A DNA stretch of 45,255 bases from Kiritimatiellia bacterium (GTDB taxonomy: Bacteria > Verrucomicrobiota > Kiritimatiellia > RFP12 > UBA3636), in assembly GCA_017413145.1 (NCBI GenBank), contig JAFPUX010000366.1:1-45255 (forward strand). The letters are read 5' to 3'. The notes below the pieces were generated by a model, which saw only the letters and a list, made by a program, of their open reading frames with translations, was not told the DNA's origin and did no database searches. Position numbers and translations under genes: made by a program. Shown piece after piece: positions 5,540 through 41,321 of this stretch (the stretch's first letter is position 1; each line of letters begins with the position of its first letter).

Positions 5540-5572
5540 ATCTCCGTCACGGCCGTCGCCGTTCCAAAACGC

Positions 5573-5785
5573 GATTGCTTCGCAACGCAATCTTGGCGGA
5601 AACGCTTCCCGCATCGCACGCCGCTTCGCGGCTATGCGGAGAAGCGTTTCCGCCCGCGTCGGTGGGGCGAGCCGCCGCGCCGCCCCTGCGGCTCGCACGG
5701 AGTGCTCGCCCCACCGGAGAGTCCCGGCGAAGACCGGTTCCGCCGGCCGCGAAGCGGCCTTGCGGGGCGGACCGGTTTTCGCCGG
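5573..5785 (+). other. Highly structured intergenic segment: one short and three long nested hairpins (candidate ncRNA, REP-like element or RNA processing/stability element)
   Basis: Short hairpin: GATTGC/GCAATC at 5573-5592. Hairpin 1 (5595-5654): perfect 14-bp stem GGCGGAAACGCTTC/GAAGCGTTTCCGCC enclosing CCGCAT/ATGCGG and GCCGC/GCGGC. Hairpin 2 (5660-5716): 13-bp stem CGGTGGGGCGAGC/GCTCGCCCCACCG with an inner GCCGC/GCGGC. Hairpin 3 (5724-5785): ~20-bp stem with one bulge, enclosing GGCCGC-GAA-GCGGCC. Confidence 0.6.
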
Positions 5786-5883
5786 AAGTATCGTCGCGAA
5801 GCGATTGCGGTCTCTCGAGCGGGAGCTCCGCCCTCCGAAACCATTCAAGCCATTCTCGGTAGAAAACGACGCCGCATGAGACC

Positions 5884-16557: not shown

Positions 16558-16587
16558 TTGACATCAAAGCATCTAATTGAATATGAT
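16558..16587 (+). promoter_or_regulatory. vapBC promoter (likely leaderless transcript)
   Basis: TTGACA (16558-16563), an 18-nt AT-rich spacer, then TATGAT (16582-16587). The ATG at 16595 lies 7 nt downstream and no SD is present. Confidence 0.5.
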
Positions 16588-16594
16588 TCCGCAC

Positions 16595-16849
16595 ATGCGC
16601 ACCACACTCACACTTGATGACGACGTATTCCTCCTCCTGGGCCGCCGCCAGAGCGAAAGCGGAGAAACGTTCAAGGATCTTGTCAACGGGCTGCTTCGGT
16701 CCGTGCTGACGCGCAAGGACGCCGGCGTCCGGGCGAAGCCCGCGCCGCGCGTGGAGACCCGGGTGTTCCACGGAGGCACGCTACTGCTGGGAGACGTGGC
16801 GAGCACCTCCGAGCTCCTCGCCCTCGCCGAAGGGGAGGACTACCGATGA
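16595..16849 (+). CDS. vapB: Type II antitoxin, VapB-like
   Basis: The N-terminus MRTTLTLDDDV is typical of VapB/DUF2191-type antitoxins. The start is placed at ATG 16595 because the track start (TTG 16577) and ATG 16583 fall inside the promoter. The stop overlaps the vapC start (ATGA). Confidence 0.75.
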   Translation: MRTTLTLDDDVFLLLGRRQSESGETFKDLVNGLLRSVLTRKDAGVRAKPAPRVETRVFHGGTLLLGDVASTSELLALAEGEDYR

Positions 16850-17277
16850 GGCTGCTCGACGCCAACATCCTGATGTACGCGTCGTTCGACGTCTATCCGC
16901 AGCACGCCCGGACGAAGGCGTGGCTGGACGAGCGCCTCAACGATCCGGACGTCCCCCTCGGAATCCCGTGGGAAAGCGCGCTGGCGTTCGTCCGGCTTGC
17001 GTCCAACCCCCGCGTCCGCACCCCGGCGCTCCGCGTGTCCGAGGCCTGGCGGCAGGTTCGGAACTGGCTCTCGGCGCAGCCGGTCTGGATCCCGCTGCCC
17101 ACGCCCCGGCACCGGAACGTCCTGGACGAGCTGCTCGCCCGTCCCGGGATGAACTCGAAGCTCGTCGCGGACGCCCATCTGGCCGCCCTGGCGATCGAAC
17201 ATGGCCTCGTCCTCTGCTCCGCCGACACGGACTTCGCCCAGTTCCCGAACCTTCGTCTGGAGAACCCGGCGATCTAG
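16846..17277 (+). CDS. vapC: Type II toxin, PIN-domain ribonuclease VapC
   Basis: MRLLDANILMYA (acidic residue at position 5), DAHLAALAIEHG, and SADTDFAQF near the C-terminus. Length is 143 aa. It is translationally coupled to the antitoxin. Confidence 0.85.
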   Translation: MRLLDANILMYASFDVYPQHARTKAWLDERLNDPDVPLGIPWESALAFVRLASNPRVRTPALRVSEAWRQVRNWLSAQPVWIPLPTPRHRNVLDELLARPGMNSKLVADAHLAALAIEHGLVLCSADTDFAQFPNLRLENPAI

Positions 17278-17358: not shown

Positions 17359-17400
17359 CCGGCGTTGCAAAGCCACGAACCGGCGTTGCAAAGCCGCGAA
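17359..17400 (+). promoter_or_regulatory. Two tandem 21-bp direct repeats abutting the -35 of leader A2 (candidate activator sites)
   Basis: CCGGCGTTGCAAAGCCACGAA (17359-17379) and CCGGCGTTGCAAAGCCGCGAA (17380-17400) match at 20 of 21 positions. The period of 21 bp equals two helical turns. The repeats end 2 nt before TTGACC at 17403. Confidence 0.5.
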
Positions 17401-17402
17401 AC

Positions 17403-17512
17403 TTGACCGCGCGCGCGCGCTATGGTAGCCTTTATTCCCGAAGGGGCGCCCCGGACGGGGCGCACCCCTTTACAAGGCCCGACAATCACCCGATTGACGC
17501 ATGGAGACTCCC
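17403..17512 (+). promoter_or_regulatory. Conserved promoter + leader, type A copy 2
   Basis: TTGACC at 17403-17408, a 17-nt spacer (GCGCGCGCGCGC...), then TGG-TAGCCT (17426-17431). Hairpin GCGCCCC-GGAC-GGGGCGC within 17443-17468. Box CAATC-ACCC-GATTG at 17483-17496. GGAGA SD. ATGAAA at 17513. Confidence 0.55.
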
Positions 17513-20500
17513 ATGAAACTGCGATTCCTCCCCGCCACCGCGCTCCTTGTTGCCGTCACCCTCCTCGCGCCAGCTTTCGGCGCGTCGCTCGACACGGCGG
17601 CGTTCTCCTGGCGCATTCCGGTCACGGTGTCCGGCTACACGGGCGAATCCACGCTCACGGACTTCCCGGTTCTCGTCACGCTGGCGGCGGACGCCCCGTC
17701 CGGGTTCGACTACGCCAAGTGCGCGGCGGACGGCTCCGATCTGCGCTTCGCGGACGCGGACGGAAATCTGCTCTCGCACGAGATCGAGACGTGGGATGCG
17801 AACGGCACGTCCTTCGTCTGGGTCAAGCTCCCGGCCCTCGCCGGCACGGCGACGTCCTTCTCCGCCTACTTCGGCACGAACGGCGTCTCCGCCCTGCCCG
17901 AGGTCCTCTCGACCAACGTCTGGTCGCGCTACGCGGCCGTCTTCCACGGCGGCGCGACGATCGCCGACGCGACCGGGCACGCGACGGCGATTACCGCGAA
18001 CGGCGCGACGACCGCCACGAGCGGCGGAAAGGCCGGCGGCGTGATGTCGAAAGGAAGCGCCAAGGGTGTCACGTTCTCGAATCCCGTCACGTCGGGCGCG
18101 CTCTCTACCATCGACAGCTTCTCGTTCTCCGGCTGGTTCAAGACGACCGGCGTGCGAGGTTCCGTTCTTCTCGTCAACAAGAATCGCAACGAATGGAACA
18201 ACAACGGATTCGTTGCCATCGTCGAAGGGGGGACATACTTCTCTGTTGGTGTCGGCGTGAACGGTTCGGGTGCGCATCAGGGGGCGTCGGGCAAGGGCGC
18301 GCTCGTCACCGGCACCTGGGGTCATCTATCTTTTTCTTATGACAAATCGGCGACGACGCTCAAGTCCTATTTCAACGGAGACGGCATCTACTCCACGACC
18401 TCGGCGCGCAATATCCTCGACCCGGGGAAGGCGACCTGGGGATTCGGCGGACACCAAGACAGCACCGACTATTGCTTCCAGGGCGACATGGACGAAGTGC
18501 GCGTCTTCAACGGCACGGCGTCCGCCGACTGGATCAAGGCCGAATACGACTCGGTGAACGACCCGGCCGCGTTCGCCAAGGCGGGAACGGCCGTCGAAAT
18601 CAATCTTGACGCCCCCCGCTTCGGTTCCGTCTCCGCCGCGGTCAACCGTTCGGACGCGACGTTCTCCGTCGCGCTCTCGAACGTCTCCGCGGAGACCGCC
18701 GTCTCCGTCTTCTACGGTCTCGAGGGCTCGACCTTCGCGGAGCTTCCGCTCGGAACGCTCTCCGCGGACGGGACGCTGACCGCCACGGCGGCCGGTCTGG
18801 GCGCCGGCTCGTATGTCTGGTACGCTCGCGCCACGTCCACCGTGGCCGGCGTCACCTACACTCCCTCGACCGCCCGCGGCGCATTCGCCGTCACGTACGC
18901 CAAGGACCCGACCGCCTCCTACAAGCACTTCACGGCGACCGTCTCCTACGCGGGGACGCCCGCCGCCGACATTCCGGTCCTGCTCCGGATTTCCGAGGAC
19001 TCGCCCGACGGCTTCCACTACGCCGACGTCACGGAGACGGGCTTCGAGTTCGTCGACGCCGACGGCAACATCCTGCCGTGGGAGATCGACACGTGGGACA
19101 CGACCGGCACGTCGCTCGTCTGGGTGAAGGTGCCGTCCTACGCGGGGGGCGCCACCGTCACCGCGCGCTACGGCGGCGCCTTCGCCAACGCCCGCCCCGC
19201 CGCATCGGGGGTCTGGAGCGGCTACGTCGGCGTCTGGCACCTCAATGAAACCAATTCCGCAAGCGCCTACGGCTCCTACCCGAACTCGACCGCGGTTCCC
19301 GGCATCGACGGCGAGAAGGCGCAGGCGTCCGTCGCGGACGAGGAGGGCGCGATCGGCAAGTCGGTCATGATCTCCCAGGCGACCTCGAAACAAGGAACCG
19401 GCTACCAGCTCGGCGGCGTGTTCGTCCCCGATTCCGGCGCGAACGCCCCGCTCGACCTCGGCGATTCGTTCGTCATTTCCGGCTGGTTCAAGCACAAGGA
19501 CTTCGACTACTACTGGGACAAGCTCTTCGCCAAGCGGAAGAAGGCCAGCAACCAGGAAACGCCGAACGGCGCGTTCGCGATCGAGATCGGCAACAGCGGC
19601 GGCTCGCACATCGTCACGGCCTGCGGCGCCGCCAGCACGGCGACCAAGCAGACGTTCCCCAAGTCGCTCAAGAACGCCTGGAACCGCCTGACGTTCGTCT
19701 ACGAGGGAACCTCCTGCCGCATCTACCAGAACGGCGCGTTCGTCGGCACCTCCACGATCGCCGCCGCGACGGACAACGACGCGTATCTGTGCTTCGGCAA
19801 CACGACGAGCGGCTACGGCGCCGGCACGGGCGACGCCGCCTGGGCGGGCTGGATCGACGAGGTGCGCCTCGCGGACGGCGTCCCGACCGCCGACTGGCTC
19901 GCCGCCGAACAGGCCGCGATGACGAACCTGCTCTCGTATGGCGCCGTCGCGTCCGTCGACCTGGGCGACCCGCGCATCGCCGCCCCCGTCGTCGAGCGCC
20001 TGGCGGACGGCACGTTCCGCGTCACCGCCGAAATCTCGCAGAACGAACCCGTGGCGGGGTCCGTGAAGTGCGTGGCCGGCGGCGTGGAATTCGCGATGAC
20101 GACCGAGGACGCGGCGCTCCCCGCGACCTACTCGGCCGTCCTCTCCGGACTCCCCGCCGGCACCTATACCGCGACCGTGCAGGCGGAGGCGGCGGGCGGC
20201 AGCGTCGTTTCCCGCACGGGCGCCGCCGTCTTCCACGCCGGCGCGCTCGTCGTTTCCAACGTGGCCGATGCCGATGAAGCCGCCCTCGCGCCCGGCACAT
20301 TCCGCATCTCGCGCGCGGACGCCGATCCGACGGACCTGCCCGCGCTCGCGTTCGACGTCGCGTTCTCCGGCCCCGGGCTTGACGCCGTCGTCGCGCCCGG
20401 CGTCACGACCCTCACGATCCCCGCCGGCGAGGCGTCCGTCGAAATCTCCGTCACGCCCGTCTACACGACCGCCGTCGACGAGGACACGACTCTCACGCTC

Positions 20501-21649
20501 GCCGTCTCGGGCGCGTTCATCGGAACGCCCTCGTCCGGTTCGATCACAATCGTCAATTCTCCCTACGACCCGGCCGTCCGCTATGTCGCGACGAGCGGCG
20601 ACGATGCGAACCACGGCTGCACGCTGGAGCTGCCGAAGAAGACCATCGCCGCCGCCATCTCGTCCCTCGACGCCATCGTGCAGACGCTTCCCTGCACCGT
20701 CCACGTCGCGCCGGGGCTGTATCCGATCTCCTCCAAGATCGTTCTCACGAACGCGATTCACGTCGTCGGCGACGACCCCGATCCATCGCATACGTTTGTC
20801 TCGAACACCGTCGAGGCCAGCTATTACACCCAGGACCAGCGAATCTTCCAGCTCAACCACGCCGAGGCGCTCGTCGCGAATCTGACGATGCAGAAGGGGC
20901 AGGAATACGGAGACGGCGGCAACCTCTACATCGGTTCCGCCGGCGGTACGGTCTCCAACTGCGTCATCGAGGCCGGCTACACGCGCGACAACGGCAAGGC
21001 CGGCGGCGCCTGGCTTGAAGCGGGCGTCGTGACGCACACCATCTTCCGCAGAAACAACTCGAACTCCTCTTCCGTCAACTGGCAGGGGAACCGACCCGGG
21101 CTTCTCCAGCTCAATGGCCAGGCTCGTGCGGAGAACTGCCTCTTCACCGAGAACAACCAGTATCGCGCCGTCACGCTGATCAACCTCGGCGGCTCGTCCG
21201 TCATGCGTAACTGTACGATCGTCGACACAAGCCTCTCGGCAACGAACGACTACTGCAAGTCGTGGTCCGCGCTCAACATCGGCTCCGGCGCGACGGTCCA
21301 GAACGTCGTGATCGCGGGCGTGACAAACACCATGGACGGCGCGGCGTGCCCGCCGACGGGATCGGTCGCGCAGTTCCAGAACGGCGCCTTCGACGGCGAC
21401 GTGTCGGCGCTGCCTGCCGGGACGGTCTCCGGCACGGCGGCGGCGTTCTTCCCGCACCATGCCGAAAACGTCCCCTACGAGGTCAAGTACCGCCCGAAGT
21501 CCGGCGGGCTCCTCGCCGACAAGGGCGCGAACTACGAACCGATGGCGCTCTACGACCTCTCGGGCGAACGGAAGCGCAAGATCGGCGCGCACGTCGACAT
21601 CGGCTGCTTCGAGGCGAACGCCGCCGGCACGGTCATCATCGTAAAATAG
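17513..21649 (+). CDS. Giant secreted protein: 2 x [DUF2341-like + LamG] units, SVFYG/Fn3-like module, Ig/Calx-like region, right-handed beta-helix with choice-of-anchor-Q-like end
   Basis: ATG 17513 (MKLRFLPATALLVAVTLLAPAFG) aligns with the ATGAAA starts of the paralogous leaders; the track start is 17501. DUF2341-type motif: DGSDLRFADADGNLLSHEIETWDANGTSFVWVKLP, and again at ...FEFVDADGNILPWEIDTWDTTGTSLVWVKVP. LamG motifs: DEVRVFNGTASADWIKAEYDS and GWIDEVRLADGVPTADWLAAE. C-terminus: HVDIGCFEANAAGTVIIVK. Confidence 0.9.
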   Translation: MKLRFLPATALLVAVTLLAPAFGASLDTAAFSWRIPVTVSGYTGESTLTDFPVLVTLAADAPSGFDYAKCAADGSDLRFADADGNLLSHEIETWDANGTSFVWVKLPALAGTATSFSAYFGTNGVSALPEVLSTNVWSRYAAVFHGGATIADATGHATAITANGATTATSGGKAGGVMSKGSAKGVTFSNPVTSGALSTIDSFSFSGWFKTTGVRGSVLLVNKNRNEWNNNGFVAIVEGGTYFSVGVGVNGSGAHQGASGKGALVTGTWGHLSFSYDKSATTLKSYFNGDGIYSTTSARNILDPGKATWGFGGHQDSTDYCFQGDMDEVRVFNGTASADWIKAEYDSVNDPAAFAKAGTAVEINLDAPRFGSVSAAVNRSDATFSVALSNVSAETAVSVFYGLEGSTFAELPLGTLSADGTLTATAAGLGAGSYVWYARATSTVAGVTYTPSTARGAFAVTYAKDPTASYKHFTATVSYAGTPAADIPVLLRISEDSPDGFHYADVTETGFEFVDADGNILPWEIDTWDTTGTSLVWVKVPSYAGGATVTARYGGAFANARPAASGVWSGYVGVWHLNETNSASAYGSYPNSTAVPGIDGEKAQASVADEEGAIGKSVMISQATSKQGTGYQLGGVFVPDSGANAPLDLGDSFVISGWFKHKDFDYYWDKLFAKRKKASNQETPNGAFAIEIGNSGGSHIVTACGAASTATKQTFPKSLKNAWNRLTFVYEGTSCRIYQNGAFVGTSTIAAATDNDAYLCFGNTTSGYGAGTGDAAWAGWIDEVRLADGVPTADWLAAEQAAMTNLLSYGAVASVDLGDPRIAAPVVERLADGTFRVTAEISQNEPVAGSVKCVAGGVEFAMTTEDAALPATYSAVLSGLPAGTYTATVQAEAAGGSVVSRTGAAVFHAGALVVSNVADADEAALAPGTFRISRADADPTDLPALAFDVAFSGPGLDAVVAPGVTTLTIPAGEASVEISVTPVYTTAVDEDTTLTLAVSGAFIGTPSSGSITIVNSPYDPAVRYVATSGDDANHGCTLELPKKTIAAAISSLDAIVQTLPCTVHVAPGLYPISSKIVLTNAIHVVGDDPDPSHTFVSNTVEASYYTQDQRIFQLNHAEALVANLTMQKGQEYGDGGNLYIGSAGGTVSNCVIEAGYTRDNGKAGGAWLEAGVVTHTIFRRNNSNSSSVNWQGNRPGLLQLNGQARAENCLFTENNQYRAVTLINLGGSSVMRNCTIVDTSLSATNDYCKSWSALNIGSGATVQNVVIAGVTNTMDGAACPPTGSVAQFQNGAFDGDVSALPAGTVSGTAAAFFPHHAENVPYEVKYRPKSGGLLADKGANYEPMALYDLSGERKRKIGAHVDIGCFEANAAGTVIIVK

Positions 21650-21659
21650 CGGCCTCGCG

Positions 21660-22685
21660 CTAGCGCGTGGTGCCGCGGGCGGCGACGGCGGGGCGAGCGA
21701 GAATCGACGCGGGAGCGCCGCCGGCGATCGCCTCGTCGAGCAGGCGCACGCCCGCTGCGGCGCGCTCGGTCTCGTGGGTCGAAACCGAGGAGAGGGGAAT
21801 CGCGGCCAGGGTGCAGAACGGCGAATCGTCCACGCCGAGGACCTTCACCTGCTCCGGCACGCGAACGCCCGCCTCGAGCAGTGCGTTGAGCACCAGCGCC
21901 GCGCCGCGGTCGGACTCGCAGAAGACGGCGTCGATCGCGCGGCGCTTCGCGGCGGCGGCGATGCGCGCGAGGGCGTCCGCGTTCGGCACGTAGGTGCGGC
22001 TGATCGCGACGACGCGGTCGTCCGCCACGGGCGCGCCGGCCTTCTCGAAGACCGCCCGGAAGCCGGCGAGGCGCCGCTCGCCGACCTTCGCGGAGAAGCC
22101 CGGCGAGGAGAGCGCGAGCGGACGGCGGCAGCCGCGCGAGAGCAGGTGCTTCGCGGCGACCTCGCCGACGGCCTCCTGCGAGACGCCGGCGTTCGGGACG
22201 CCCTCCGCGGCGGGGTCGCCGAACACGGTCGCGGCCGGCAGGCCGCGTTCCGCCAGCTCGGCCAGCGCGGGCGCGAGGTCGAAGTACGGCATGCCGCCGA
22301 AGAGCACGCCGTCCACGCGGGCGCGGGAGGCGGCGGCGAGGCAGTCGCGGCGGAACTCCGCCTCGTCGTGGAAGAACTGGAGCCCCATGCGCTTGCCGGC
22401 GCGGGCGAGCTCGCGCGTGGCGCCGTCGAGGAAACGCTCCAGGAGCGCGCTGCCCTCCGTGCCGTGGCGCGAGAGGAACACCGCGATGCAGTCCTGCCGC
22501 CCCGAGTGGAGCGAGCGCGCGGCGGCGTTCGGGACGAAGCCGCGCGCCTGGGCGATCTTCCGGATGCGGGAGGCCAGCTCCGGCCGCACGGTGCTGGTGC
22601 CCATGCGGCCGCTGAGGACCTTCGAGACGAGGGAGCGGGAGACGCCGGCTTCGCTGGCGATATCCAGGATTCTTACGGATGACAT
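21660..22685 (-). CDS. LacI-family transcriptional regulator
   Basis: N-terminal HTH: VRILDIASEAGVSRSLVSKVLSG. The C-terminal region has a periplasmic-binding-protein-like fold. It lies 39 nt downstream of, and co-oriented with, the 22725..26528 gene. Confidence 0.9.
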   Translation of the reverse strand: MSSVRILDIASEAGVSRSLVSKVLSGRMGTSTVRPELASRIRKIAQARGFVPNAAARSLHSGRQDCIAVFLSRHGTEGSALLERFLDGATRELARAGKRMGLQFFHDEAEFRRDCLAAASRARVDGVLFGGMPYFDLAPALAELAERGLPAATVFGDPAAEGVPNAGVSQEAVGEVAAKHLLSRGCRRPLALSSPGFSAKVGERRLAGFRAVFEKAGAPVADDRVVAISRTYVPNADALARIAAAAKRRAIDAVFCESDRGAALVLNALLEAGVRVPEQVKVLGVDDSPFCTLAAIPLSSVSTHETERAAAGVRLLDEAIAGGAPASILARPAVAARGTTR

Positions 22686-25700: not shown

Positions 25701-26528
25701 GAAGCGGACGTGGAAGAAGAGCGAGTTGTAGCGGAAGAGCTTCTGGACCGTCTGCCGGAAGCGCACCGTGCCCTGGCCGGGCTTGATTTCCTGGAAGCCC
25801 CAGCCGAGGCCGGGGTAGTTCACGTGGTGGCGGTCCTTCTCGTGGACGCCGTCCGGATTGTCGATCCACGGGCCGCAGCCGAAGGCGACGACGTGGCACT
25901 TGTCGTTCCAGTACTCGGACGGATCGAGGTAGTAGTCTACGACGATCTCGAAGGACTCGCCCTCGTGCACCTCCGCCATGGGCTCGTCCGTCCCGGGCTT
26001 GAAGCAGCCGCGCGGCTGCAGCCAGCTCTTCTTGTAGGTGATGCCCTCCGGCGGCTTGCGGCGCGCGGCGGCGGCCTCCTCCTCCTTCCTCTTCTTCTCG
26101 ACTTGCTCGGCCGTCATCTCCCAGTTGATCCGGCCGCAGAAGAGCACGTGCGTCTGCTTGTTCCAGTCGCCGTTCGGCGCGGTGAAGACGAGCGGGCCGA
26201 AGGAGCCGAGGTCGTCCTTGAAGTCCGCCGCGAACGTGTAGGTCGCGGTCCCGCCCTTCTGGATCGTCTGGGGCGGGCGCCACTGGCCCGTGTCCCGCCA
26301 GCCGCCGTCGGGCTTGAAGGTGTGCACAGCGACCGAGACGTTCTCGTCCGGCCCGAGATCCTTCTTGAGCGTGACCTTGATCTGGAAGCCGGAGCCGGGC
26401 TTGACCTTGTCGGGCGTCTCGACCCGGAGCCAGTCGTCTTCGTGGACGCCGGCGGCGGCCGGCCGTGCGAACAGCGCCGCGGCGCAGAGCGCGGCGGCGA
26501 GGAAGGAACGGTTGAGCGGATGTTTCAT
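22725..26528 (-). CDS. Large secreted glycoside hydrolase-like protein (Ig-like N-domain, clan-GH-A-like barrel, CBM4_9-like and CBM9/DOMON-like domains), copy 1
   Basis: Signal peptide MKHPLNRSFLAAALCAAALFARPAAA. Barrel NE motif in IEWLNEIVPG. CBM4_9-type motif: NLLANGGFENGKNGW. CBM9-like motif: DGDLSDWDF...AWDADALYLAVRVRDD. A paralogue lies at 41322..45128 (roughly 80-85% aa identity by eye). Confidence 0.85.
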   Translation of the reverse strand: MKHPLNRSFLAAALCAAALFARPAAAGVHEDDWLRVETPDKVKPGSGFQIKVTLKKDLGPDENVSVAVHTFKPDGGWRDTGQWRPPQTIQKGGTATYTFAADFKDDLGSFGPLVFTAPNGDWNKQTHVLFCGRINWEMTAEQVEKKRKEEEAAAARRKPPEGITYKKSWLQPRGCFKPGTDEPMAEVHEGESFEIVVDYYLDPSEYWNDKCHVVAFGCGPWIDNPDGVHEKDRHHVNYPGLGWGFQEIKPGQGTVRFRQTVQKLFRYNSLFFHVRFRGGDDRDFPWTTTCSAPRLVRPLVGIDLVAPTAGGLFVAGREKPVLDLVAAADAKAGAPVAIKVCALDTDGRLEEVGTATATIPTPGKTAKVDLSGVVGRRLGCFLAEGRGGDAKVDAFFGVIPDVDKALGGKRAPFGATDLHTEMECEAAAKLGFSVNRMFTGWGGLVPKRGEYRFDGLSASMDRQLKHGIKPWLMLTGAPEWVLPEHVHSPGFEPYPFDEDGWRESIRAIAQKFGKRVYGIEWLNEIVPGSKSSDPVSDYKRFCEIGAEELRKVNPKAKSILAGGLWPRNFRLDLLGAGVGKSIDILPIHYGSYGSAAEALADAAAGGVSSVWDDENACGISVWGMEGREALERSAIQSMQVMRSWPEQLVAGVDGIIYFGGEANPAGNWKYLLDDHTPRPVAATLAVLSAKLGDARPVGGYYAEPGARVLVFERKDGTALAVVGSVNGNPAAPPVDVKIPATPGTTVVRTDHQGNATEVSVGDGNAIPVAAGAMPAFYEGLPLSRLAVRCALSVDGQGPLTSKPSVGFVKGADPQLRVSVRNPLRVPVAGGLDISVAGKSAVRKLFRLAAGENAHYVLDIPPEALPDGPSEAVVAVAWKAPKAEKADKAARSVAVDTVDPATLGNLLANGGFENGKNGWIGGGRVVDLPGGRPGEEGHALSLDHSPDYVQCFQRIHNPTPGRDLLYTAWMRTDDMYAGSNMSFFQKSGGHYDLYIPDVFCAPKDSFGAWQLMIKVAGSVPDNADAQVQPVARGAKGTALYDNLRVTAYDGSDWAAEAHKAAKPRTIDGDLSDWDFADPVPLLCANQMVAEGGYKWTPENLSGIAQLAWDADALYLAVRVRDDVHVAQTGEKTLSGDALQIGLHPVNRLPGTEGAAIEWYVSSASPGGGSGHHTVFRPAAHSAGLSSGQLAKDSSVYEVAVKRAGKDTCYELRIPWGDAGGVRPQPGTRLGFSLRLTDADNGAGHGAAAWGRGLDPWSPGAFGSLVLLP

Positions 26529-26629
26529 GGACTGTTTTCCGTTTGTGTCAAATCAATCGTGTGACTTTTTGGGAAACGAAAGTCTCACGACGCCGTCCGA
26601 TTCTATCCCAATCCCCCCGTCCGGCGCAA
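26529..26629 (-). promoter_or_regulatory. Conserved promoter + leader, type B copy 1
   Basis: On the minus strand: TTGCGC (26629-26624), an 18-nt spacer, TAGAAT (26605-26600), a GAGAC/GTTTC-type hairpin, the box AGTCACACGATTG (26554-26567 region), and ATGAAACATCCGCT. It aligns almost base for base with 41221-41321. Confidence 0.55.
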
Positions 26630-26663
26630 GCGAAAACGACGGAAGGCGCGAAGTCGCGAACGC

Positions 26664-26774
26664 TTGACACGCGCGCGCGAATTTTGATAGGTTTCCGCTT
26701 GAAGGGACGCCCCGGGGTCGGGGGTCCTTTTTTCGCAACTCCGGCAATCATCCGATTGATACAAGGAGATTCGC
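26664..26774 (+). promoter_or_regulatory. Conserved promoter + leader, type A copy 3
   Basis: TTGACA at 26664-26669, an 18-nt spacer (CGCGCGCGCG...), then TGA-TAGGTT (26688-26693). Hairpin plus T6 at 26705-26733. Box CAATC-ATCC-GATTG at 26745-26758. AAGGAGA SD. ATGAAA at 26775. Confidence 0.55.
26705..26733 (+). terminator. Intrinsic-terminator-like hairpin + T6 inside leader A3 (candidate attenuator)
   Basis: GGAC(G)CCCC pairs with GGGGGTCC across a 6-nt loop (26705-26727), followed immediately by TTTTTT (26728-33). The upstream neighbour is divergent, so this cannot be that gene's terminator. Confidence 0.5.
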
Positions 26775-29700
26775 ATGAAACGCATCCTTCCTCTCCTGCT
26801 CCTCGCCGTCCTCCTCGCGCTTCCCGCCCGCGCGGCGGAGGCCGACTCCACCGGCCTCGTTCCCACGCTCTGGTGGGACTTCGAGACGCAGCCGTCCTCT
26901 TCGGGACTCCCGGGCGCGAACAAGGGTTCCGCGAGCGGCTTCACGTTCACCGGCGAGGGGACTGCCACCTACGTCGCGGGCGCCACGAACGGCTGGGCGC
27001 TCGATGCGTCGAAGTTCACGCCGTATTCGTCGAAGAACAACTTGTTCTCGACGGCTGGCGGCGCCTTCACGCTCTCCCTCGTCATGAATCTCGGCTCGGC
27101 CCAGGGCGGCATCGCGCTGAACCTCCGCAACGAAACCGGGGCGAAGGACCTGATCGTCCGCCGCGGCTCGGCCGCGGGGGCGCTCGTCGTCGGCCTCGGC
27201 CCGCAGGCGTCCGCTTCGACGGTCCTTCTCGAAACGACGTTCGCGGACGGCGGATTCGGCCTGGCACCTCGTCACCGTCGTCTTCAAGGACACCGGGACG
27301 GACCTCTACGTGGACGGCACCCTGGCGGATTCCACGGCGAGCGCCACGCTGTGGAGCGCCTCGGGCGGTGCCAGCCGCCTCCAGTTCGGATCGCACCTGG
27401 GCGGCCTCCAGGCCAACGAGGCTAGAAACGGCGGCTGCATCGACGACCTGCGCATCCACGACGCGGCGCTCACGACCGTCCAAATCCGTGCCGTCGCCGC
27501 CGAATACGGACTCGTCCACGACGACGGTTTCATCGGAATCGCCGCGTCCGGGGAACCGACGGTCGGCGCGGATTCCTTCCGGACGCCGTTCGATCTGCTT
27601 CTGGACCAAGGCGACGCGGCGGAAGTCGCGATCGTCCACGGCGCGGACGCCGCGCTGTCGGCGCCGGCGACGAACGTCGTCGGTTCGGCGCTGCCGGCCG
27701 GTTCCTACACGGCGTCGCTCTCCGGCCTCGCGTCCGGCACGACCTACTGGTGGAAACTCGTCGCGAGCAACGGCGTCCGCCGGGCCGAAACGGACGTGGC
27801 GTCGTTCCGCACGCTCGACACGGTCGCCGCGGCGGACTTTTCCCGGCGCGTTCCGGTCGCCGTCTCCGGCTATGCCGGATCCTCCACGCTCACGAACTTC
27901 CCGGTCCTCGTGAAGCTCGCGGCGGACGCTCCCTCCGGCTTCGACTACGCCGACTGCGCGGCAGACGGTTCGGACCTCCGCTTCGCGGCCCCGGACGGCC
28001 TCCTCCTCCACCACGAGATCGACACGTGGAACACGAACGGCGAGTCGTTCGTCTGGGTGAAGGTTCCGGCGCTCTCCGGCACGGCCACGGCCTTCACGAT
28101 GTATTACGGCGCGGCGGACCCGACGGCGCTTCCGACGGTCGATCCGCGCTCCGTCTGGACGGCGACCGGCCACCGCGCCGTGTGGCACTTCGCCGCGGAC
28201 GCGACGGAATCCGCGCAGGGCCTGGTCCCGTCCTCGACCACCGGCACGCCGTCCTATGAATACGCCGGTGCCGTCGGTCCATGCTGGCAGAGCGCGGGCG
28301 CGGCCTGGCTGCAGTATGCCAACGACGCCTCCTGGAGGACGCTCGGCGCGGGCTCGACGCTCACGATTTCCGTCTGGGCCAAATTCGACGACAGCAAGTA
28401 CGAATACCAGCGAATCCTTTCCACGATGTCCAACTGGCAGAACACCGCCGGCTACGAGCTGACCGTCCAGAACCAGAAGAACCAGATCACCGTCGGGTCG
28501 AGCGGGCGGAGCCAGTACCAGAAGGTCGTTTCGCCCGGACCGATGGACGAACTGGTCTACCTCACGGCCGTCTACAACGCCGACCGCTACGCGGACCTCT
28601 ACGTGAACGGCGTCCTGCAGGAGCACCAGCAACTCAACGCGGTCGTGCAGCCGACGGAGGCGATGACGGTCGCCTGCGTGGCCGGCGGCGGCAACGTCTG
28701 GAACGGCCGGCTGGACGAGCTCCGCCTCCACGCGGCCGCCGAATCGGCCGACTGGGTCAAGGCCTGCTACGACACGATGGCGGCGCCGGCGTCGTTCGTC
28801 ACGCTTTCGCCGGCCGAATCGACCGACCCGGACCTGCCGCGGTTCGGCGCAGTTTCCGCGTCCGACGCGAACGGCGTCGCGACCTTCACCGTTCCGCTCA
28901 CCGAGCCCGGCTACGGCGGCGAAGTCCCGACCGCCGTTTCGGTCTTCTACGGGACCGACGGCGAAACCTGGACGGAGCTTCCCCTCGGTTCGACGAACGA
29001 GGCCGCGACGCTCACCGGAACGGCGTCCGGTTTCGAGGCCGGCGTCCGCTACGTGTGGTACGCCGAGGCGACCGCTACGAGCGGCGGCACGCCCAAGACG
29101 ACGACTTCCCCGCAGCGGTCCTTCGTCGCGAGGTCCTTCGACCCGACTGGCTACTACAAGTCCTTCACGGCGACCGTCGCCTGGGACGGCGCGCCCGCGG
29201 AGAACGTCCCGTTCCTGCTGCGCATCTCCGAGACAGGGATCCACGGCTTCGACTACGACGACGTCACGGCGTCCGGCCTCGAGATCCTCGACGAAGGCGG
29301 CCAACTGCTGCCCTACGAGATCGACACGTGGAACACGAACGGCGAATCGCTCGTCTGGACGCGCCTGCCCGTCTACGAAAACGGCGCGACGGTCACGGTC
29401 CGCTACGGCGCCCCGTTCGCCAACGCGCCGCTCCCCGCGACGAATGTCTGGGCTGGCTATGCCGGCGTCTGGCACATGAACGAAACATACGACGCCGAGA
29501 CCGCCGCGACGGGACTCGCGCGCGACTCGACCGGGAATGGCCTCGACGCCACGCCGTCCAAAGGCGGTTCCGGCAATCTCGCGGAGATGGTTTCCGATGC
29601 CGGCGTTATAGGAAACGCTCGCGTTAACGCCACAAGCGATGTCGCTGGCGGAAACTACCTCTCCGTTCCAAACTACGACTCGCTTGCGCTTGGCGACACG

Positions 29701-31854
29701 TTCGCCGTCTCCGGATGGTTCAAGGCCACGACCGTCAACGGCTATCCGCGACTCCTGTCGCGCAAGACGGCGTACAACACCGACAACGGCTGGGAACTCG
29801 AGAACGGCAACGGCAACGCCAAGGCCTTCTCCGCCCGCGGCGCCAGCGGTGACGCAATCTCGCTGAATACCCCGAGCTACGACAACGCCTGGGTTCACAT
29901 CGCCCTTGTGTACAACGGGACGACGCTCTCCGCCTACGCCAACGGCGCTCCGTGCGGAAGCGGCATGATCGCCGCCGCGACGGACAACGGCATGCCCCTC
30001 TCGTTCGGCAACAACTCCAACGGCAGCGAGCGCTCGCTCGCGGGCCTTTACGACGAAATCCGACTCTTGGACGCCACGCCGTCCGCCGAACGGATCGCGG
30101 CCGAATACCACGCGATGGCGGACGGCACCGTCTCCTTCTCCTCCGTTTCGTCGTCCGACGCGTCCGCCCCCGTCCTCGGGGTTCCCTCCGTCGCGAGCGA
30201 CGCGAACGGCTCGTTCACCGTCTCGGTCTCCGTTTCCGAAAACGCCCCCGCGTCGATCGTCTGCGCGGTCGGCAGCGCGACCTACGCGATGACGACCGAG
30301 GACGCGTCGCTCCCGACGACGTATTCCGCCACGGTTTCCGGCCTCGCGCCCGGCACCCATGTCGCGTCCGTCCATGCGACGGCGACGAGCGGGACGGGCG
30401 TTTCCTCGACCTGCCCGGACGCCTTCCACGCCGGCGCGCTGGCGATCGCCAAGATTTCCGACGCAGATGAGAGCATGCTGACGCCCGGCGTCTTCCGCGT
30501 CTCGCGCCTGGACGCCGACGCCACGGGACTTCCGGCGCTGACGTTCGATGTTGCGTTTTCCGGCGCCGGCCTCGTCGCGATCGCCGATCCGGGGATTTCG
30601 ACCGCCACGATCCCAGCCGGCGCGGCGTACGTCGACATCGCCGTCACGCCCGTCCCGAACGATGCCGTGAACGAAGACCTCGAACTCGTCCTGACCGTCT
30701 CGGGCGCGCACGTCGGCCAATCCTCGACCGCCTCGCTGACCGTCGTGGACGCGAGTTTCGACCTGGCGGTCCGCTACGTCGCCACGTCCGGCAACGACGC
30801 CAACTCCGGCGGCACGCCCGAGATACCCAAGAAGACGATCGCCGCGGCCGTCGCCGCCCTCGCCCCCATCGCGCCGACGCGGACCTGCACCGTCCACGTC
30901 GCGCCGGGGCTGTACCCGATCACGTCACCGATCGTCGTCACGAACGCGGTCCGCATCCTCGGCGACGACCCCGACCCGTCGCGCGTCGTCGTGTCCAACC
31001 GGAATCAGGCCGGCTGGGCGCAAACGCAACGCGTCTTCACCATCAACCATGCGGACGCCCTCGTCGCGAACCTCACGATGCAGAAGGGGTCCGTCGGCGG
31101 AGACTGGACCGAGGGGGCGAACTTCAGCATCGAATCGGCGGGCGGCACCGTGTCAAATTGCGTGGTCGAGGCGGGCGCGCAGCGGACGAACCATGCCAAC
31201 GGCGGCGGCGCCTCCCTGGGCGCCGGTCTCGTGACGCACACGGTGTTCCGGAAGAACACGGCGCCGAACTCCTCGCCCTACGGCCCCGGCGGCGGGAACC
31301 GGGCCGCCGTCCTCCACCTCTACGGGAGTTCCCGGGCGGAAAACTGCCTGCTCGTCGACAACCCGCAGTCCACGGCCGTGGTCCTGGTCCGGCTGGCGGA
31401 CACCGCCCTCATGCGCAACTGCACCGTCGTCGATTCCGCCCTGTCCAAAACCTCCGACGTCTGCCGGGCCTTCTCGGCGATCCGGATCGATGGGTCCGCC
31501 TCGGTCGTCAATACGGTCATCGCCGGCGTGACGAACAAGATCGACGGCGCGGCGTGCCCGCCGACGGGAACCGTCGCGAACTTCCTGAACGGCGCGTTCG
31601 ACGGCGACGCGACGGGCCTGCCCGCCGGCACGATCATCGGCACGGCGGCCTCGTTCTTCCGCAACTACGCCGCGTCGGACTACAGTCTGAAGTACCAGCC
31701 CAAGTCCGGCGGCCCGCTCTACGACAAGGGCGCGGACTACTCGCCGCTGCCCCTCTGCGACCTCTCGGGCGCCCGGCCCCGCAAGATCGGCGCGCACATC
31801 GATATCGGCTGCTACGAAGCGAACGCCGCCTCCACGGTCTTCATCGTGAAGTGA
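26775..31854 (+). pseudogene. Frameshifted giant secreted protein (LamG, then 2 x [DUF2341-like + LamG], SVFYG modules, Ig/Calx-like, beta-helix). Pseudogene or assembly indel.
   Basis: The signal peptide and first part of a LamG domain are in frame 0 (26775 to ~27250). The domain then continues as ...SAWHLVTVVFKDTGTDLYVDGTLADS... in the +1 frame, which stays open to 31854. The frame-0 reading ends at 27425. The shift maps to about 27249-27253 (GGCGGA). C-terminus: HIDIGCYEANAASTVFIVK. Confidence 0.7.
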
Positions 31855-34064: not shown

Positions 34065-34174
34065 TTGACACGCGCGCGCGAAATTTGGTAGTTTTATCCC
34101 CGAAGGGGTGCCCCGGAAGGGACGAACCTCTTTTCAAGGCCCGACAATCACACGATTGACACAAGGAGATTCCC
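34065..34174 (+). promoter_or_regulatory. Conserved promoter + leader, type A copy 4
   Basis: TTGACA at 34065-34070, an 18-nt spacer (CGCGCGCGCG...), then TGG-TAGTTT (34089-34094). Alternating C4/G4 tracts and a T4 stretch (34097-34134). Box CAATC-ACAC-GATTG at 34145-34158. AAGGAGA SD. ATGAAA at 34175. Confidence 0.55.
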
Positions 34175-36430
34175 ATGAAACTGCGGTCCCTCCTCGCCGC
34201 AACGGCACTCTTGTCTCTTCTCGCGCCCGCCGCGCGGGCGGAGGAAGTCACGCTTCCCGCCGGCTACGTGCCCGTCAACCTCGTCACGAACGTCGGCGGC
34301 TCCGCCTCCAGCGACACGAAATGCCTGAACAGCGACAGCGGGTATGGCGTCGCGAAAGCGTTCGACAAGAAATATTACTCCGACAACACGCGCTGGATCG
34401 GACATGGTTCGACGTTTCCGCAACGCGCCGTCTGGACCTTCCCGGAGGCGACTGTCGTGGACGCGGTTCGCATCTACAACGCGAATTACCGCGGTGCCAA
34501 CCAGTCCCCGTCCGATTTCACGATCGCCGGGTCGAACGACGGGACGACTTGGACGACGCTCGATTCGGAATCCGGCGTGACCGGATGGAGCGCCAACCAG
34601 TTCCGGACCTTCGGGTTCGAGAACGAAACGCCCTACTTGAACTACCGTCTGGAAGTGACCGCAGTCCAGGACATGACGGGGTCCGACGGCAAGCGCATGA
34701 CGATCACGGAAATCGAACTCTATCGCGTCCACCAGGCGTCTTTCGAAGTCGCTCCATCCGGTTCGCCGACGGTCGGACTCGACACGTTTTCCACGGACTG
34801 GAACCTGACCGTGGAAGAAGGCGCGACGGCCGCCGCCGGAATCGTCTGGAGCACCGACGGAACGTTTGCGACCGCGGCGACGAATTCGCTCGGAACCAGT
34901 CTCGCGGCCGGCACGCACACGGCGTCCCTTTCCGGGCTTGAGCCGGACGCGACGTACTGGTGGAAGATCTACGCCGTCCGGGGAAACGAAACCAAAGAGA
35001 CGATCGCGTATTCTTTCAAGACGATTGGCGCGCCGGTGTTTGGCAATGCGACCACGACCGTGAACGGCGAGTCCGCCACGTTCACCGTTTCCATCGCGGA
35101 GGCGGCGCTGACCAACACGCTTTCCACTTCCGTTTCCGTGTTCTACGGGGCGGACGGCGAAACCTGGACCGAACTTCCGCTCGGCGCGTCCGCGACGGCG
35201 GCCACGCTGACCGGATCCGCCGGAAACCTCGGCTACGGCGTGACGTATCGGTGGTTTGCGCGGGCGTCGGCGACCATGGCGAACTCCCGCGTCCTTTCCG
35301 TGGACACGGCCACAAACTCCTTCACGACGCTTTGGGGCGGCGACATGTATGTCGACGCCGCGGCCGCGAACGCGACTGCACCCTACTCGACTCCCGAGAC
35401 GGCCGCGAAGACCATCGCCGCCGCGCTCTCGCTCGCCATGGACGGCGCGAGGATTTTTGTCGCGCCAGGCCGATACAACATTTCCACGCCGCTCTCCTTG
35501 ACGAAGGCCGTCGAACTGGTCGGCGACGACGACGATCCGTCCCTCGTCGTCGTGGCGAACACCGCCGGCGTCTCATGGGGAAACACGAACCATAGGTGCA
35601 TTCTGGTGAACCATGCGAACGCCCGGGTTTCCGGTATGACGTTCGAGAACGGAAAGGACTACGGCAACGGTGGAAACGTCCGGATCGACACGAACGGCGG
35701 CATGGTCACCAATTGCATCCTCTCCGGCGGATTCACGCGGGAAGGCAACGATTCCGCCGGCGCGAACGTGGCGATCACGGGCCCCGGACTCGTGACGCAT
35801 TGCCGGATTTTCGGCGGCAGCCAGAACAACTGCAGCGGCTGTGATCGCGCGTCCTCGGTCTATCTCGAGCACGCGGATGCCCGAATCGAGAACTGCCTCG
35901 TCAGCGGATTCCAGGGGGCGACGGTTTCCACCCAGCCCACCGTGGGCTGCGCCGGAATCCTCGTCAACAAGGGGGCCGCCGTCAACTGCACCGTCGCGGA
36001 CTGCACGTCCCCCTACACGACGGACATCGGCTTCGCAGGCATCCAGCTGTGGGCGAACGGCATCGCAATAAACTGCGTATCCGTTGACAATGTCGACAGC
36101 AACGGCACAGTCCGGGCGTTCGCGCCTTCGCAGGTCTCCCGCACGTCGCACTGCGCGTTCGACGCGATCGCCGGCGAGGCGGTCGTTCCGGAGGGCATGG
36201 TGGGCGGCGTCGTCGGCACGCCAGAGTCGTTCTTCCGGAACTACGCCTCGTCCGACATCCGCCTGAAATACCAGCCGAAGACCGGCGGCCCGCTCTACGA
36301 CGCGGGCGCGGACTACGAACCGATGGCGCTCTACGATCTCTCGGGCGAGCAGAAGCGCAAGGTCGGAGCGCACGTCGACATCGGCTGCTACGAAGGCAAC
36401 GCCTCGGGATTCGTCCTTCTCGTGAAATAA
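34175..36430 (+). CDS. Secreted discoidin (F5/8 type C)-like + Fn3/SVFYG modules + right-handed beta-helix protein with choice-of-anchor-Q-like end
   Basis: Signal peptide MKLRSLLAATALLSLLAPAARA. Discoidin-like jelly roll: ...AVWTFPEATVVDAVRIYNANY...ITEIELYR. SVFYG module: SVSVFYGADGETWTELPLG. PbH1-like repeats: MVTNCILSGG, IENCLVSGF, AVNCTVADC. C-terminus: HVDIGCYEGNASGFVLLVK. Confidence 0.85.
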   Translation: MKLRSLLAATALLSLLAPAARAEEVTLPAGYVPVNLVTNVGGSASSDTKCLNSDSGYGVAKAFDKKYYSDNTRWIGHGSTFPQRAVWTFPEATVVDAVRIYNANYRGANQSPSDFTIAGSNDGTTWTTLDSESGVTGWSANQFRTFGFENETPYLNYRLEVTAVQDMTGSDGKRMTITEIELYRVHQASFEVAPSGSPTVGLDTFSTDWNLTVEEGATAAAGIVWSTDGTFATAATNSLGTSLAAGTHTASLSGLEPDATYWWKIYAVRGNETKETIAYSFKTIGAPVFGNATTTVNGESATFTVSIAEAALTNTLSTSVSVFYGADGETWTELPLGASATAATLTGSAGNLGYGVTYRWFARASATMANSRVLSVDTATNSFTTLWGGDMYVDAAAANATAPYSTPETAAKTIAAALSLAMDGARIFVAPGRYNISTPLSLTKAVELVGDDDDPSLVVVANTAGVSWGNTNHRCILVNHANARVSGMTFENGKDYGNGGNVRIDTNGGMVTNCILSGGFTREGNDSAGANVAITGPGLVTHCRIFGGSQNNCSGCDRASSVYLEHADARIENCLVSGFQGATVSTQPTVGCAGILVNKGAAVNCTVADCTSPYTTDIGFAGIQLWANGIAINCVSVDNVDSNGTVRAFAPSQVSRTSHCAFDAIAGEAVVPEGMVGGVVGTPESFFRNYASSDIRLKYQPKTGGPLYDAGADYEPMALYDLSGEQKRKVGAHVDIGCYEGNASGFVLLVK

Positions 36431-38497: not shown

Positions 38498-38558
38498 GGC
38501 GCCGGATTCTAGCAGAACGCCCCGCGCGGGACAATCGGTTCCGCGCCACGCGATGCGT

Positions 38559-38587
38559 TTGACGCGCCCCGGGCGGTCTGGTAGGAT
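38559..38587 (+). promoter_or_regulatory. Promoter of the small ORF-CapA-M14 operon (same -35/-10 type as the leaders)
   Basis: TTGACG (38559-38564), a 17-nt spacer, then TGG-TAGGAT (-10 at 38582-38587). ATG at 38631. Confidence 0.45.
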
Positions 38588-38630
38588 CATACGAACCGGA
38601 AGCGTGTGGCTCCCGCCGAAGAAACACGCC

Positions 38631-38825
38631 ATGAAAAACGGATTCGCGATCCTCCTCCTCTTTTCGTTCTGCTTCGCCGCGTCCGCCGCGGAAACCGGGC
38701 TCCGCACGCTCGGCAAGCCCGTCCCCGCCCGTCTCGTGCGGCACGACGGCGCGCCCTTCGCCCTCGTCGACGCCGTCCCCGACCGCGGCGAAATCGTGCT
38801 GGTTCCCGGAGACTCGGCGAAATGA
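38631..38825 (+). CDS. Small secreted hypothetical protein (64 aa)
   Basis: Signal peptide MKNGFAILLLFSFCFAASAAE. G/C-ending codons throughout. The stop overlaps the CapA start (ATGA). No recognisable domain. Confidence 0.55.
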   Translation: MKNGFAILLLFSFCFAASAAETGLRTLGKPVPARLVRHDGAPFALVDAVPDRGEIVLVPGDSAK

Positions 38826-41200: not shown

Positions 41201-41236
41201 CCCCCGTCCGTCGTTTTCGCTTGCGCCGGACGGGGG
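41201..41236 (+). terminator. 10-bp perfect hairpin after the M14 gene, with the -35 of leader B2 in its loop
   Basis: CCCCCGTCCG (41201-41210) pairs with CGGACGGGGG (41227-41236). The loop TCGTTTTCGCTTGCGC contains TTGCGC. There is no U-tract. The left arm is absent from the paralogous leader B1. Confidence 0.3.
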
Positions 41237-41321
41237 AATTGGGATAGAATCGTACGGCGTCGGGAGACTTTCGTTTCCCAAGAAGTCACACGATTGACTT
41301 GACACAAACGGAGAACAGCCC
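41221..41321 (+). promoter_or_regulatory. Conserved promoter + leader, type B copy 2
   Basis: TTGCGC at 41221-41226, an 18-nt spacer, TAGAAT at 41245-41250. Hairpin GGGAGAC-TTTC-GTTTCCC at 41262-41279. Box AAGTCACACGATTG at 41283-41296. ATGAAACATCCGCT at 41322. Confidence 0.55.

Follow-up and report, generated by a model that had tools for sequence, protein, structure and literature searches.

In a 45,255-nucleotide contig from a Kiritimatiellia bacterium (JAFPUX010000366.1; by the window we mean the whole of this stretch), a conserved region with a promoter and a leader recurs six times, each time directly ahead of a start codon. Is this region one regulatory element, what might act on it, and how much of the likeness between its copies comes from shared descent alone? 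The window has a base composition of 70% GC and holds approximately 11 transcription units, as judged by GC3-based gene calling and by the gene calls on matching contigs; its origin is in gut or rumen metagenome assemblies. Six of these 11 units open with the conserved module. We found no literature on gene regulation in the Kiritimatiellae.

Six copies and their promoters

The initial annotation had described six copies, and all six are found where it placed them. Four of these, called type A, lie on the forward strand: A1 (2624-2734), A2 (17403-17512), A3 (26664-26774) and A4 (34065-34174). The -35 element is TTGACA in A1 (2624-2629), A3 (26664-26669) and A4 (34065-34070), and TTGACC in A2 (17403-17408). 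The extended -10 element reads TGG-TAGTCT in A1 (hexamer 2648-2653), TGG-TAGCCT in A2 (17426-17431), TGA-TAGGTT in A3 (26688-26693) and TGG-TAGTTT in A4 (34089-34094). The start codons follow at 2735, 17513, 26775 and 34175, respectively; the aligned start codon of A2 agrees with the end at 17512 that had been assigned to this copy. The features by which type A was recognized, i.e. TTGAC[A/C], a 17-18 nt spacer, TGnTAGnnT, a GC-rich hairpin and ATGAAA, are all present. The GGAGA Shine–Dalgarno (SD) sequence that completed this list is found in A2 (17504-17508), A3 and A4, and A1 is without a GGAG SD. A further mark, CAATC-N4-GATTG, does pick out the A copies, with four occurrences in the window against 0.02 expected. 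Taking the ATG as reference, the A copies are conserved between about -118 and +20, against a background identity of 0.3-0.4.

The two remaining copies, called type B, have TTGCGC, a spacer of 18 nt and TAGAAT. In B1 (26529-26629, reverse strand) these elements lie at 26629-26624 and 26605-26600 with the ATG at 26528, and in B2 (41221-41321, forward strand) they lie at 41221-41226 and 41245-41250 with the ATG at 41322.

The -35 sequences, spacers and TG(G/A)-TAGnnT elements of the A copies are those of a sigma-70-type promoter with an extended -10. A relaxed pattern, TTGNNN-N13-15-[T/G]GnTAnnnT, has eight matches in the window against 1.2 expected, all of them correctly oriented at the starts of transcription units. 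Six are the modules and the other two form a divergent pair of non-module promoters at 38506-38587; a GC-rich proximal spacer is common to all eight. More distant Kiritimatiellae have promoters with TTTGGTAnAAT. In view of the non-module pair and of the relatives, the promoter half is the ordinary sigma-70-type promoter of this lineage, with an extended -10, and not a specific part of the module. The CGCGCGCG spacer had been counted as part of the module and no longer can be, since the promoters at 38506-38587 show the same GC-rich spacer style. The view that the full 110 nt form a single novel RNA element, promoter and leader together, likewise gives way to a generic promoter followed by a leader. 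Promoter activity and the start site are predictions from these motifs. Two further candidates were tried and rejected: an additional promoter downstream of the hairpin and ahead of the ATG, where no acceptable -10 is seen, and an RfaH ops element (GGCGGTAG), which has GGTAG alone in common with the copies, and GGTAG is the -10.

We scanned genome and metagenome collections with the pattern TTGAC-N17-20-TAG-N45-70-CAATCAYNCGATTGA. The palindrome was fixed in this pattern, therefore the matches say little about variation of the box that is described below. In the genome collection 15 stretches matched, which is approximately the level expected by chance (estimated by hand). Real copies of the module were found at two genome loci and nine metagenome loci, all on Kiritimatiellae-like contigs of 64-72% GC. 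Two MAGs, one from the rumen and one labelled 'uncultured Verrucomicrobia', contain related copies.

Several near-identical copies in one genome, and an rve-type integrase gene just beyond the right end of the window (L001), raise the question of whether the copies are ends of a larger mobile repeat, e.g. the termini of a MITE or an insertion sequence with an outward-facing promoter. The initial annotation had named this as a finding that would speak against its reading. Conservation sets in some 5 nt ahead of the -35 and tails off within the signal peptide, so that the copies are bounded by these two features and lack the marks of a MITE; no terminal inverted repeats or target duplications were seen. 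The copies also keep a single orientation and position relative to the start codon. An nhmmer profile of the A copies, run with --max over 579 kb, detected the module directly upstream of start codons only, with no copies within or between genes elsewhere. We consider a mobile origin to be extremely improbable.

The leader hairpin and the palindromic box

What defines the module is its leader, consisting of a hairpin with a U-run, a gap and a short conserved sequence that we call the box. We compiled 20 leader instances, including the four A and two B copies of the window, ten A-type copies on other contigs and the copies L024a, L059 and L060; a further leader, L062, was read after this table was made. 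In 17 of the 20 a GC-rich hairpin (-12 to -26 kcal/mol) is followed by a run of three to six U residues, and a GC-rich stem-loop directly followed by a U-tract is the hallmark of an intrinsic terminator. The box is a 12-mer, TCAnnCGrTyGA, that lies 8-24 nt ahead of the ATG and has CG-centred TCA/TGA symmetry. In its wider form it covers 12-14 bp, (A)TCA-nn-CG-rT-TGA(T), just before the SD and the ATG. In 18 of the 20 leaders the U-run and the box are separated by 13 or 14 nt, whereas the distance from the -10 to the box varies between 49 and 58 nt.

The A copies of the window illustrate this layout. In A1 the hairpin (2666-2693) runs into six U residues (2693-2698) and is followed, after 13 nt, by the box TCACTCGATTGA (2712-2723). 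A2 has a hairpin at 17440-17471 with UUU at its end, a gap of 14 nt and the box TCACCCGATTGA (17486-17497). In A3 the hairpin (26701-26731) and U6 run (26728-26733) are separated by 14 nt from the box TCATCCGATTGA (26748-26759), and in A4 an imperfect hairpin (34102-34133) with a U4 run (34131-34134) stands 13 nt before the box TCACACGATTGA (34148-34159). A stable C.A mismatch interrupts this first hairpin in the A4 subgroup, where folding is no better than in shuffled sequences. The 45-kb window contains just two T6 runs, those of A1 and A3, and a terminator scan of the window gave few matches, among them the A1 hairpin (2674-2691) and the A3 hairpin (26709-26728).

Unrelated stem sequences number at least five, as the main A type, A1, L024a, L059 and L060 each have their own. 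The filler sequence is unrelated in the leaders of A1, L024a, L059, L060 and L062, yet the leader elements recur, and the U-run is retained even where no upstream A-tract could pair with it (A1 and L024a). This recurrence amid unrelated filler, together with the restriction of the box to leaders, upholds the earlier proposal that a shared cis-regulatory unit ties the genes together. The genes upstream of A3 and L043a are divergently transcribed, which rules out the hairpin as the terminator of an upstream gene and assigns it to the leader. In many copies the U-runs are short (three to five residues), and the leader hairpins would therefore be weak terminators.

A terminator-like hairpin within a 5′ leader is also what one would expect of a metabolite-sensing riboswitch, or of a classical attenuator that switches between a terminator and an antiterminator fold, and in some copies a small upstream hairpin, CCCC-GAA-GGGG, might compete with the lower part of the terminator stem. 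However, approximately 0-10 nt precede the stem, which is too short for an aptamer or for the site of an antiterminator protein. We found no mutually exclusive antiterminator fold or leader ORF, no conserved alternative fold in the RNAalifold analysis and no conserved multi-helix junction. The hairpin sequences are freely replaceable, and the conserved box comes after the terminator, a position from which it cannot antiterminate. A search of the whole window against Rfam at gathering thresholds returned no matches; for two module regions searched at E-values up to 10, the best matches had E-values of 1.2 or more and at most 14 bits (the gathering thresholds are 40-95) and were to unrelated families. 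The leader thus remains without a match to any known riboswitch or leader family, as had been supposed, and we regard an explanation of this type as very unlikely.

The conservation of the box is pronounced. In 144 kb of clade DNA TCAnnCGrTyGA has 22 matches, representing 20 sites, against 0.62 expected, and all 20 sites are in leaders, at the distance from the start codon given above. Across the 16 distinct copies, positions T9, C10, C14, G15, T17, G19 and A20 are invariant; the symmetric T-A and C-G pairs and the central C-G are present in all 16, and the A-T pair in 15, one of these by a G-C compensation (L043a). In L024a and L060 the box is a near-perfect contiguous palindrome, TCAATCGGTTGA. 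The symmetric core extends over 12-14 bp in the A copies and over 16-18 bp in B2, L059 and L060, where the usual length for a site of the LacI family is 16-22 bp. Most copies depart from symmetry at the inner positions (+/-2 and +/-3), the better half-site, CGrTTGA, is gene-proximal in 20/20, and the centre of the box lies 14-30 nt before the ATG. The palindrome can also be drawn in a second register, CAATC-N4-GATTG in the A copies, which is 92.5% paired across all copies with G.U included. Pair counts for the two registers do not discriminate between them, and covariation counts do not separate a DNA from an RNA reading of the box.

Two readings of the box are accordingly weighed here. At the RNA level, the 12-mer and the small hairpin that it forms near the SD would bind an RNA-binding protein or a small RNA that affects translation or decay, with the first hairpin serving as a 5′ stabilizer or the U-run recruiting an Hfq-like factor. 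The box has a fixed orientation relative to the gene in all 20 leaders and adjoins the SD, 8-24 nt from the ATG. The fixed orientation of the half-sites is left unexplained by a symmetric dimer and is a better fit to common descent or to an RNA-level role. The small hairpin is possible in every variant, although with shifting registers and G.U pairs included (B1, L060 and L024a), and L043a shows one change on both sides, from A-U to G-C. No more than 0-3 nt separate the first hairpin from the predicted start site, and in B1 and B2 this hairpin lacks a U-run, which implies that termination is not its general role.

The 5′ UTR of ompA and the leader of Bacillus subtilis aprE have 5′-terminal stabilizing stem-loops, and the module resembles them in placing a GC-rich hairpin a few nucleotides from the (here predicted) mRNA 5′ end of genes for abundant exported proteins. 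It is unlike them in having a conserved unpaired U-run after the stem and a downstream box at a fixed distance; a plain stabilizer needs no such U-run. The second hairpin is also weak, mostly -1.5 to -3.5 kcal/mol and 0 in L043b, which is odd for a selected stem at 70% GC, and its register varies between A, B and L024a whereas the sequence is conserved. RNAalifold, run on a MAFFT alignment that misaligns the first hairpin, recovered only this small second hairpin, with an almost negligible covariation term (about -0.02). No candidate for a trans-acting RNA or RNA-binding protein was identified. We judge a role of the box in RNA to be fairly unlikely; a DNA operator for the neighbouring repressor of the LacI family accounts for the palindrome at least as well as RNA structure does.

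Among other resemblances that we noted, AUCACC is reminiscent of anti-SD mimicry and the context of the SD is CsrA-like; these are resemblances only. A candidate IHF site (WATCAANNNNTTR) has one mismatch, at a key position, and was set aside.

The CBM9-lacI operon and type B leaders

B1 heads an operon with a carbohydrate-binding module 9 (CBM9) gene followed, 39 nt downstream on the same strand, by a gene for a LacI-family transcription factor (21660-22685, reverse strand). The predicted protein has an HTH and a periplasmic-binding-protein fold, and aligns over its full length to the structures of CcpA, PurR and LacI. The CBM9-lacI pair is found in all four species-level variants that we have seen, i.e. 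the window, L059, L060 and L062, and each of the four operon leaders contains the box. The lacI orthologs form a tight group with 75-91% identity, after which identity falls to 50% or less; this range mirrors the narrow distribution of the module. More distant Kiritimatiellae, with 58-63% GC, have CBM9 genes without lacI and without the box. The family genes of these relatives have short leaders, and a different palindrome, TACAC-N4-GTGTA, abuts their -35.

Binding sites of the LacI family are even palindromes with a central CG for 1173 of 1303 transcription factors (PMC4052901), and the box has this form. Its even, CG-centred palindrome, the adjoining lacI gene and the matching narrow distribution make the box a candidate operator, probably for the LacI-family repressor that the CBM9-lacI operon encodes. 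As this operon itself carries the box the repressor would be autoregulated, as are 72% of LacI-family regulators (PMC4052901). Sites of this family usually lie between -140 and -30, and the box is at the near edge of this range (PMC4052901). Taken together, the six genes look like part of a real local LacI regulon, which is probably sugar-responsive.

The CBM9 operons also shed light on the origin of type B, which had been presented as a kind of its own beside type A. In L059, L060 and L062 these operons have a TTGACG promoter. The L060 leader has a long hairpin, a U-run, a gap of 14 nt and the box TCAATCGGTTGA; that of L059 has the same layout with a gap of 13 nt and the box TCACTCGGTTGA; and that of L062 has the box TCATTCGATTGA with a U-run that has decayed to CUGUU. 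B1 has a short hairpin (26588-26571) without a U-run, a gap of 6 nt and the box TCACACGATTGA (26564-26553) within the palindrome AAGTCA-CACGAT-TGATTT. Its paralogous copy B2 has a hairpin at 41262-41279 and a box at 41286-41297 within the 18-bp palindrome AAGTCA-CACGAT-TGACTT. Both combine a weakened -35, a truncated hairpin lacking the U-run and the 6 nt gap with a box that has been kept. By this comparison type B is a derived, decayed form of the A-like leaders seen in the CBM9 operons of relatives, and the two types are not separate kinds. Coupling to a terminator is not obligatory, as the U-run or the phasing is gone from B1, B2 and L062, all of which retain the box.

Paralogy, cassette exchange and a model of regulation

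How much of the similarity between the copies reflects regulation, and how much reflects descent? Along the whole length of 1267 aa the B1 and B2 genes have 83% identity, contrary to an earlier statement that they differ past the signal peptide, and the type B pair is therefore a gene duplication. In type A, paralogy links the genes of A2, A3 and A4 with the partial gene at 2-2599; they have 360-880 C-terminal residues in common, forming a beta-helix domain that ends in ...DIGCYE-x-NAAGxVxxVK, and the signal peptides of the A2, A3 and A4 family are near-identical. All real metagenome matches to the composite pattern stand ahead of genes from this beta-helix family. L023 and L024b have one leader variant and the start MNRPILH in common and differ in their mature N-terminal domains, which indicates that part of the base-for-base identity comes from a copied or exchanged 5′ cassette. 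The near base-for-base alignment that had been reported is correct, then, and much of this identity is due to paralogy and cassette exchange. On these sequence comparisons we regard the promoter, leader and signal peptide as a 5′ cassette that is copied and exchanged among the beta-helix paralogs.

The position of the module had been described as always ahead of a gene for a large secreted protein. This is true of the window; in relatives, however, an extra copy detected with the nhmmer profile (L024a, at L024:146-258) precedes a cytoplasmic GFO/IDH/MocA oxidoreductase that has no signal peptide and enters its Rossmann fold from residue 4. In L029 and L034 the module stands ahead of a 21-codon deletion remnant, which joins the module and its ATG to the final 18 codons.

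One might go further and propose that there is no dedicated regulation at all, that the similarity is the footprint of recent duplication or gene conversion of the 5′ cassette, and that a strong promoter is its sole functional content. The paralogy of the B genes and of the A2, A3, A4 and 2-2599 genes, the single family behind the metagenome matches, the L023/L024b pair and the deletion remnant that still retains its module would all be expected under this proposal. What it does not account for is the recurrence of the hairpin and U-run, the 13-14 nt gap and the box before non-homologous genes (A1, the L024a oxidoreductase and the CBM9 operons of L059 and L060). The leaders are moreover 70-85% identical whereas the A-type proteins are 35-48% identical, and the box is absent outside leaders in the 144 kb of clade DNA. 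We think it quite improbable that descent alone is the answer.

We propose the following model. The 5′ control region of each transcription unit would consist of the promoter, the terminator-like leader hairpin and the box, in this order, and the LacI-type repressor would bind the box in the leaders of the CBM9-lacI operon and of the A-type genes. The candidate operator is at about +45 to +70, so that a bound repressor would act as a roadblock to elongation. RNA polymerase stalls approximately 14 bp upstream of a bound protein, and its downstream footprint is roughly 14-18 bp. A blocked polymerase would sit at or near the hairpin and U-run and may be released there, as the constant 13-14 nt phasing hints, and an inducer would lift the block. 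What is seen in the sequences are the elements of the module, the way they are spaced and confined to leaders, the synteny with lacI and the paralogy; binding by LacI and a coupling of roadblock to termination are what these suggest. A LacI-operator regulon with a roadblock at the leader hairpin, combined with cassette exchange among paralogs, is put forward tentatively as the whole explanation, our confidence in it falling just short of even. A more specific version, in which the LacI-type repressor 13-14 nt past the U-run would make a leaky hairpin efficient, and this inducer-relieved stop would have spread as a cassette with the signal peptide across secreted proteins, is in our judgement unlikely.

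The closest known systems share parts of this design. CelR, a regulator of the LacI/GalR family, recognizes a 14-bp palindrome before cellulase genes of Thermobifida. As in LacI/GalR carbohydrate regulons of this type (PMC4052901), the module has a short palindrome with a central CG before several genes for secreted proteins that act on or bind carbohydrates, a regulator gene within one of the target operons, which would here be autoregulated, and a regulator and site with a narrow, lineage-specific distribution. The module differs from these regulons in its symmetric core of 12-14 bp, its asymmetric inner positions and the fixed orientation of its better half-site. It also differs in where the site lies, close to the ATG (8-24 nt) and far downstream of the promoter, at about +45 to +70, and in its phasing 13-14 nt behind a terminator-like hairpin; the operator of the module is a predicted one.

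Roadblocks by proteins of the LacI family, i.e. LacI, PurR, GalR and CcpA, are established (PMC10310618, PMC6524683). These cases, which include PurR at purB and CcpA at cre sites, resemble the module in having an operator downstream of the start site. No intrinsic terminator was found at a fixed distance upstream of the operator in the known cases, whereas the hairpin, U-run and 13-14 nt gap of the module would suggest assisted release. Factor-assisted termination at a weak leader terminator is known from TRAP at the trp attenuator of B. subtilis (PMC3064811). The two are alike in a weak leader terminator with an efficiency that depends, here presumptively, on a bound protein; TRAP binds RNA upstream of the terminator, and the candidate factor of the module would bind DNA downstream of it.

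The module is best rated, from its sequence and distribution, as a real, lineage-specific cis-regulatory module with a layout that is unusual and not fundamentally new. If the 13-14 nt phasing is not functional, this would be an ordinary local LacI regulon, with an apparent module that is inflated by paralogy. If it is functional, the leader would represent a compact design in which a DNA-bound roadblock assists an intrinsic terminator, of which we found no description in the literature, and which would be simple to test and reusable in synthetic circuits. For the Kiritimatiellae, a group of the rumen and gut with few cultured representatives, there is now a concrete promoter consensus, as well as a candidate repressor-operator pair for large secreted carbohydrate-binding and beta-helix proteins.

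Palindromes and promoters beside the module

Beyond the promoter, leader hairpin and 12-mer box that define the module, there is a second palindrome that lies 5′ of the -35 element in some of its copies. In A2, the module copy heading the gene at 17513-21649, the palindrome GGCGTTGCAAAGCC is found twice (17361-17374 and 17382-17395), the copies being 21 nt apart and 8-28 nt 5′ of the -35. Related module copies on other contigs (L007, L013, L021, L027 and L038) have a single GGCGTTGCAAAGCC palindrome just upstream of the -35, and the counterpart at the equivalent position in A4 is GGCAAGCTGCATTGCC. In part of the family, this type of palindrome may serve as an activator site in its own right.

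The promoter style of the modules, TGnTAGnAT, also occurs without a module, in two divergent promoters at 38498-38590. The interval between them holds a degenerate box, ACAATCGGTTCC (38529-38540), which overlaps the -35 of the minus-strand promoter. That promoter ends 8 nt before the ATG at 38497, so its mRNA is probably leaderless. On the plus strand, the small secreted protein seems to begin at 38632, rather than at the called start, 38553.

Architecture and integrity of the family proteins

All members of the family of secreted beta-helix proteins share the C-terminal consensus R-K-[IV]-G-x-H-[IV]-D-I-G-C-[YF]-E-x-N-A-A-G-x-[VIL]4-K (genes 2-2599, 17513-21649, 26775-31854 and 34175-36430, as well as those on related contigs L029 and L034). 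The DIGCYE motif is followed by a short hydrophobic tail that runs to the C-terminus and could serve as a sorting signal; in the CBM9 proteins the C-terminal sequence is ...GSLVLLP. The L029 and L034 copies are remnants that retain no more than the module, its ATG and the final 18 codons. At the other end of the gene, L023:112-229 and L024:3504-3620 have in common one leader variant and the first seven codons, MNRPILH, and the mature proteins differ, which points to the signal-peptide region as a site of recombination.

Compared with its uninterrupted ortholog of 1701 aa at L043:15999-21104, the A3 gene (26775-31854) carries a 1-nt frameshift near 27252 (region 27240-27260) that breaks it in two. 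Residues 24-159 of the ortholog align in frame 3 as far as 27251, and residues 160-1701 do so in frame 1 from 27253 onwards; the site itself contains no homopolymer. The frameshift could be an assembly error, the mark of a pseudogene or programmed slippage.

Spacer repeats and a small cassette

The A1 gene is separated from the C10 peptidase gene by a 344-nt spacer (5540-5883) with three long GC-rich inverted repeats, e.g. GGTGGGGCGAG...CTCGCCCCACC, which look like REP-type elements; a similar repeat is found on L043, upstream of position 502. CGATTG words occur within this spacer at 5572 and 5802. Elsewhere, a two-gene cassette of lower GC (16558-17277) has a textbook promoter, TTGACA-18-TATGAT, and overlapping stop and start codons (genes at ~16596-16850 and 16848-17277). 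It resembles a toxin-antitoxin pair, but a Pfam search with the second protein gave no match.

Regulation of the family in related genomes

On contig L062, the long leader of a divergent GH20 gene (2873-3245, minus strand) contains the palindrome AGATCGATCCCGATCT. This resembles TCGATCGCCCGATCGA, the form of the box in module copy L043a, but does not match the 12-mer pattern. The family genes of Kiritimatiellae with a GC content of 58-63% have no module (L044, L046, L048, L050, L051 and L053). Upstream of them, TACAC-N4-GTGTA (or ATAC-N4-GTAT) directly adjoins the -35; TTTGGTAnAAT comes next, and the leaders are very short. On three of these contigs (L048, L050 and L053) a NarL/GerE-type response regulator and a HisKA_3 kinase are encoded directly 5′ of the family gene. 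The arrangement has the look of another way of regulating the same family of genes.
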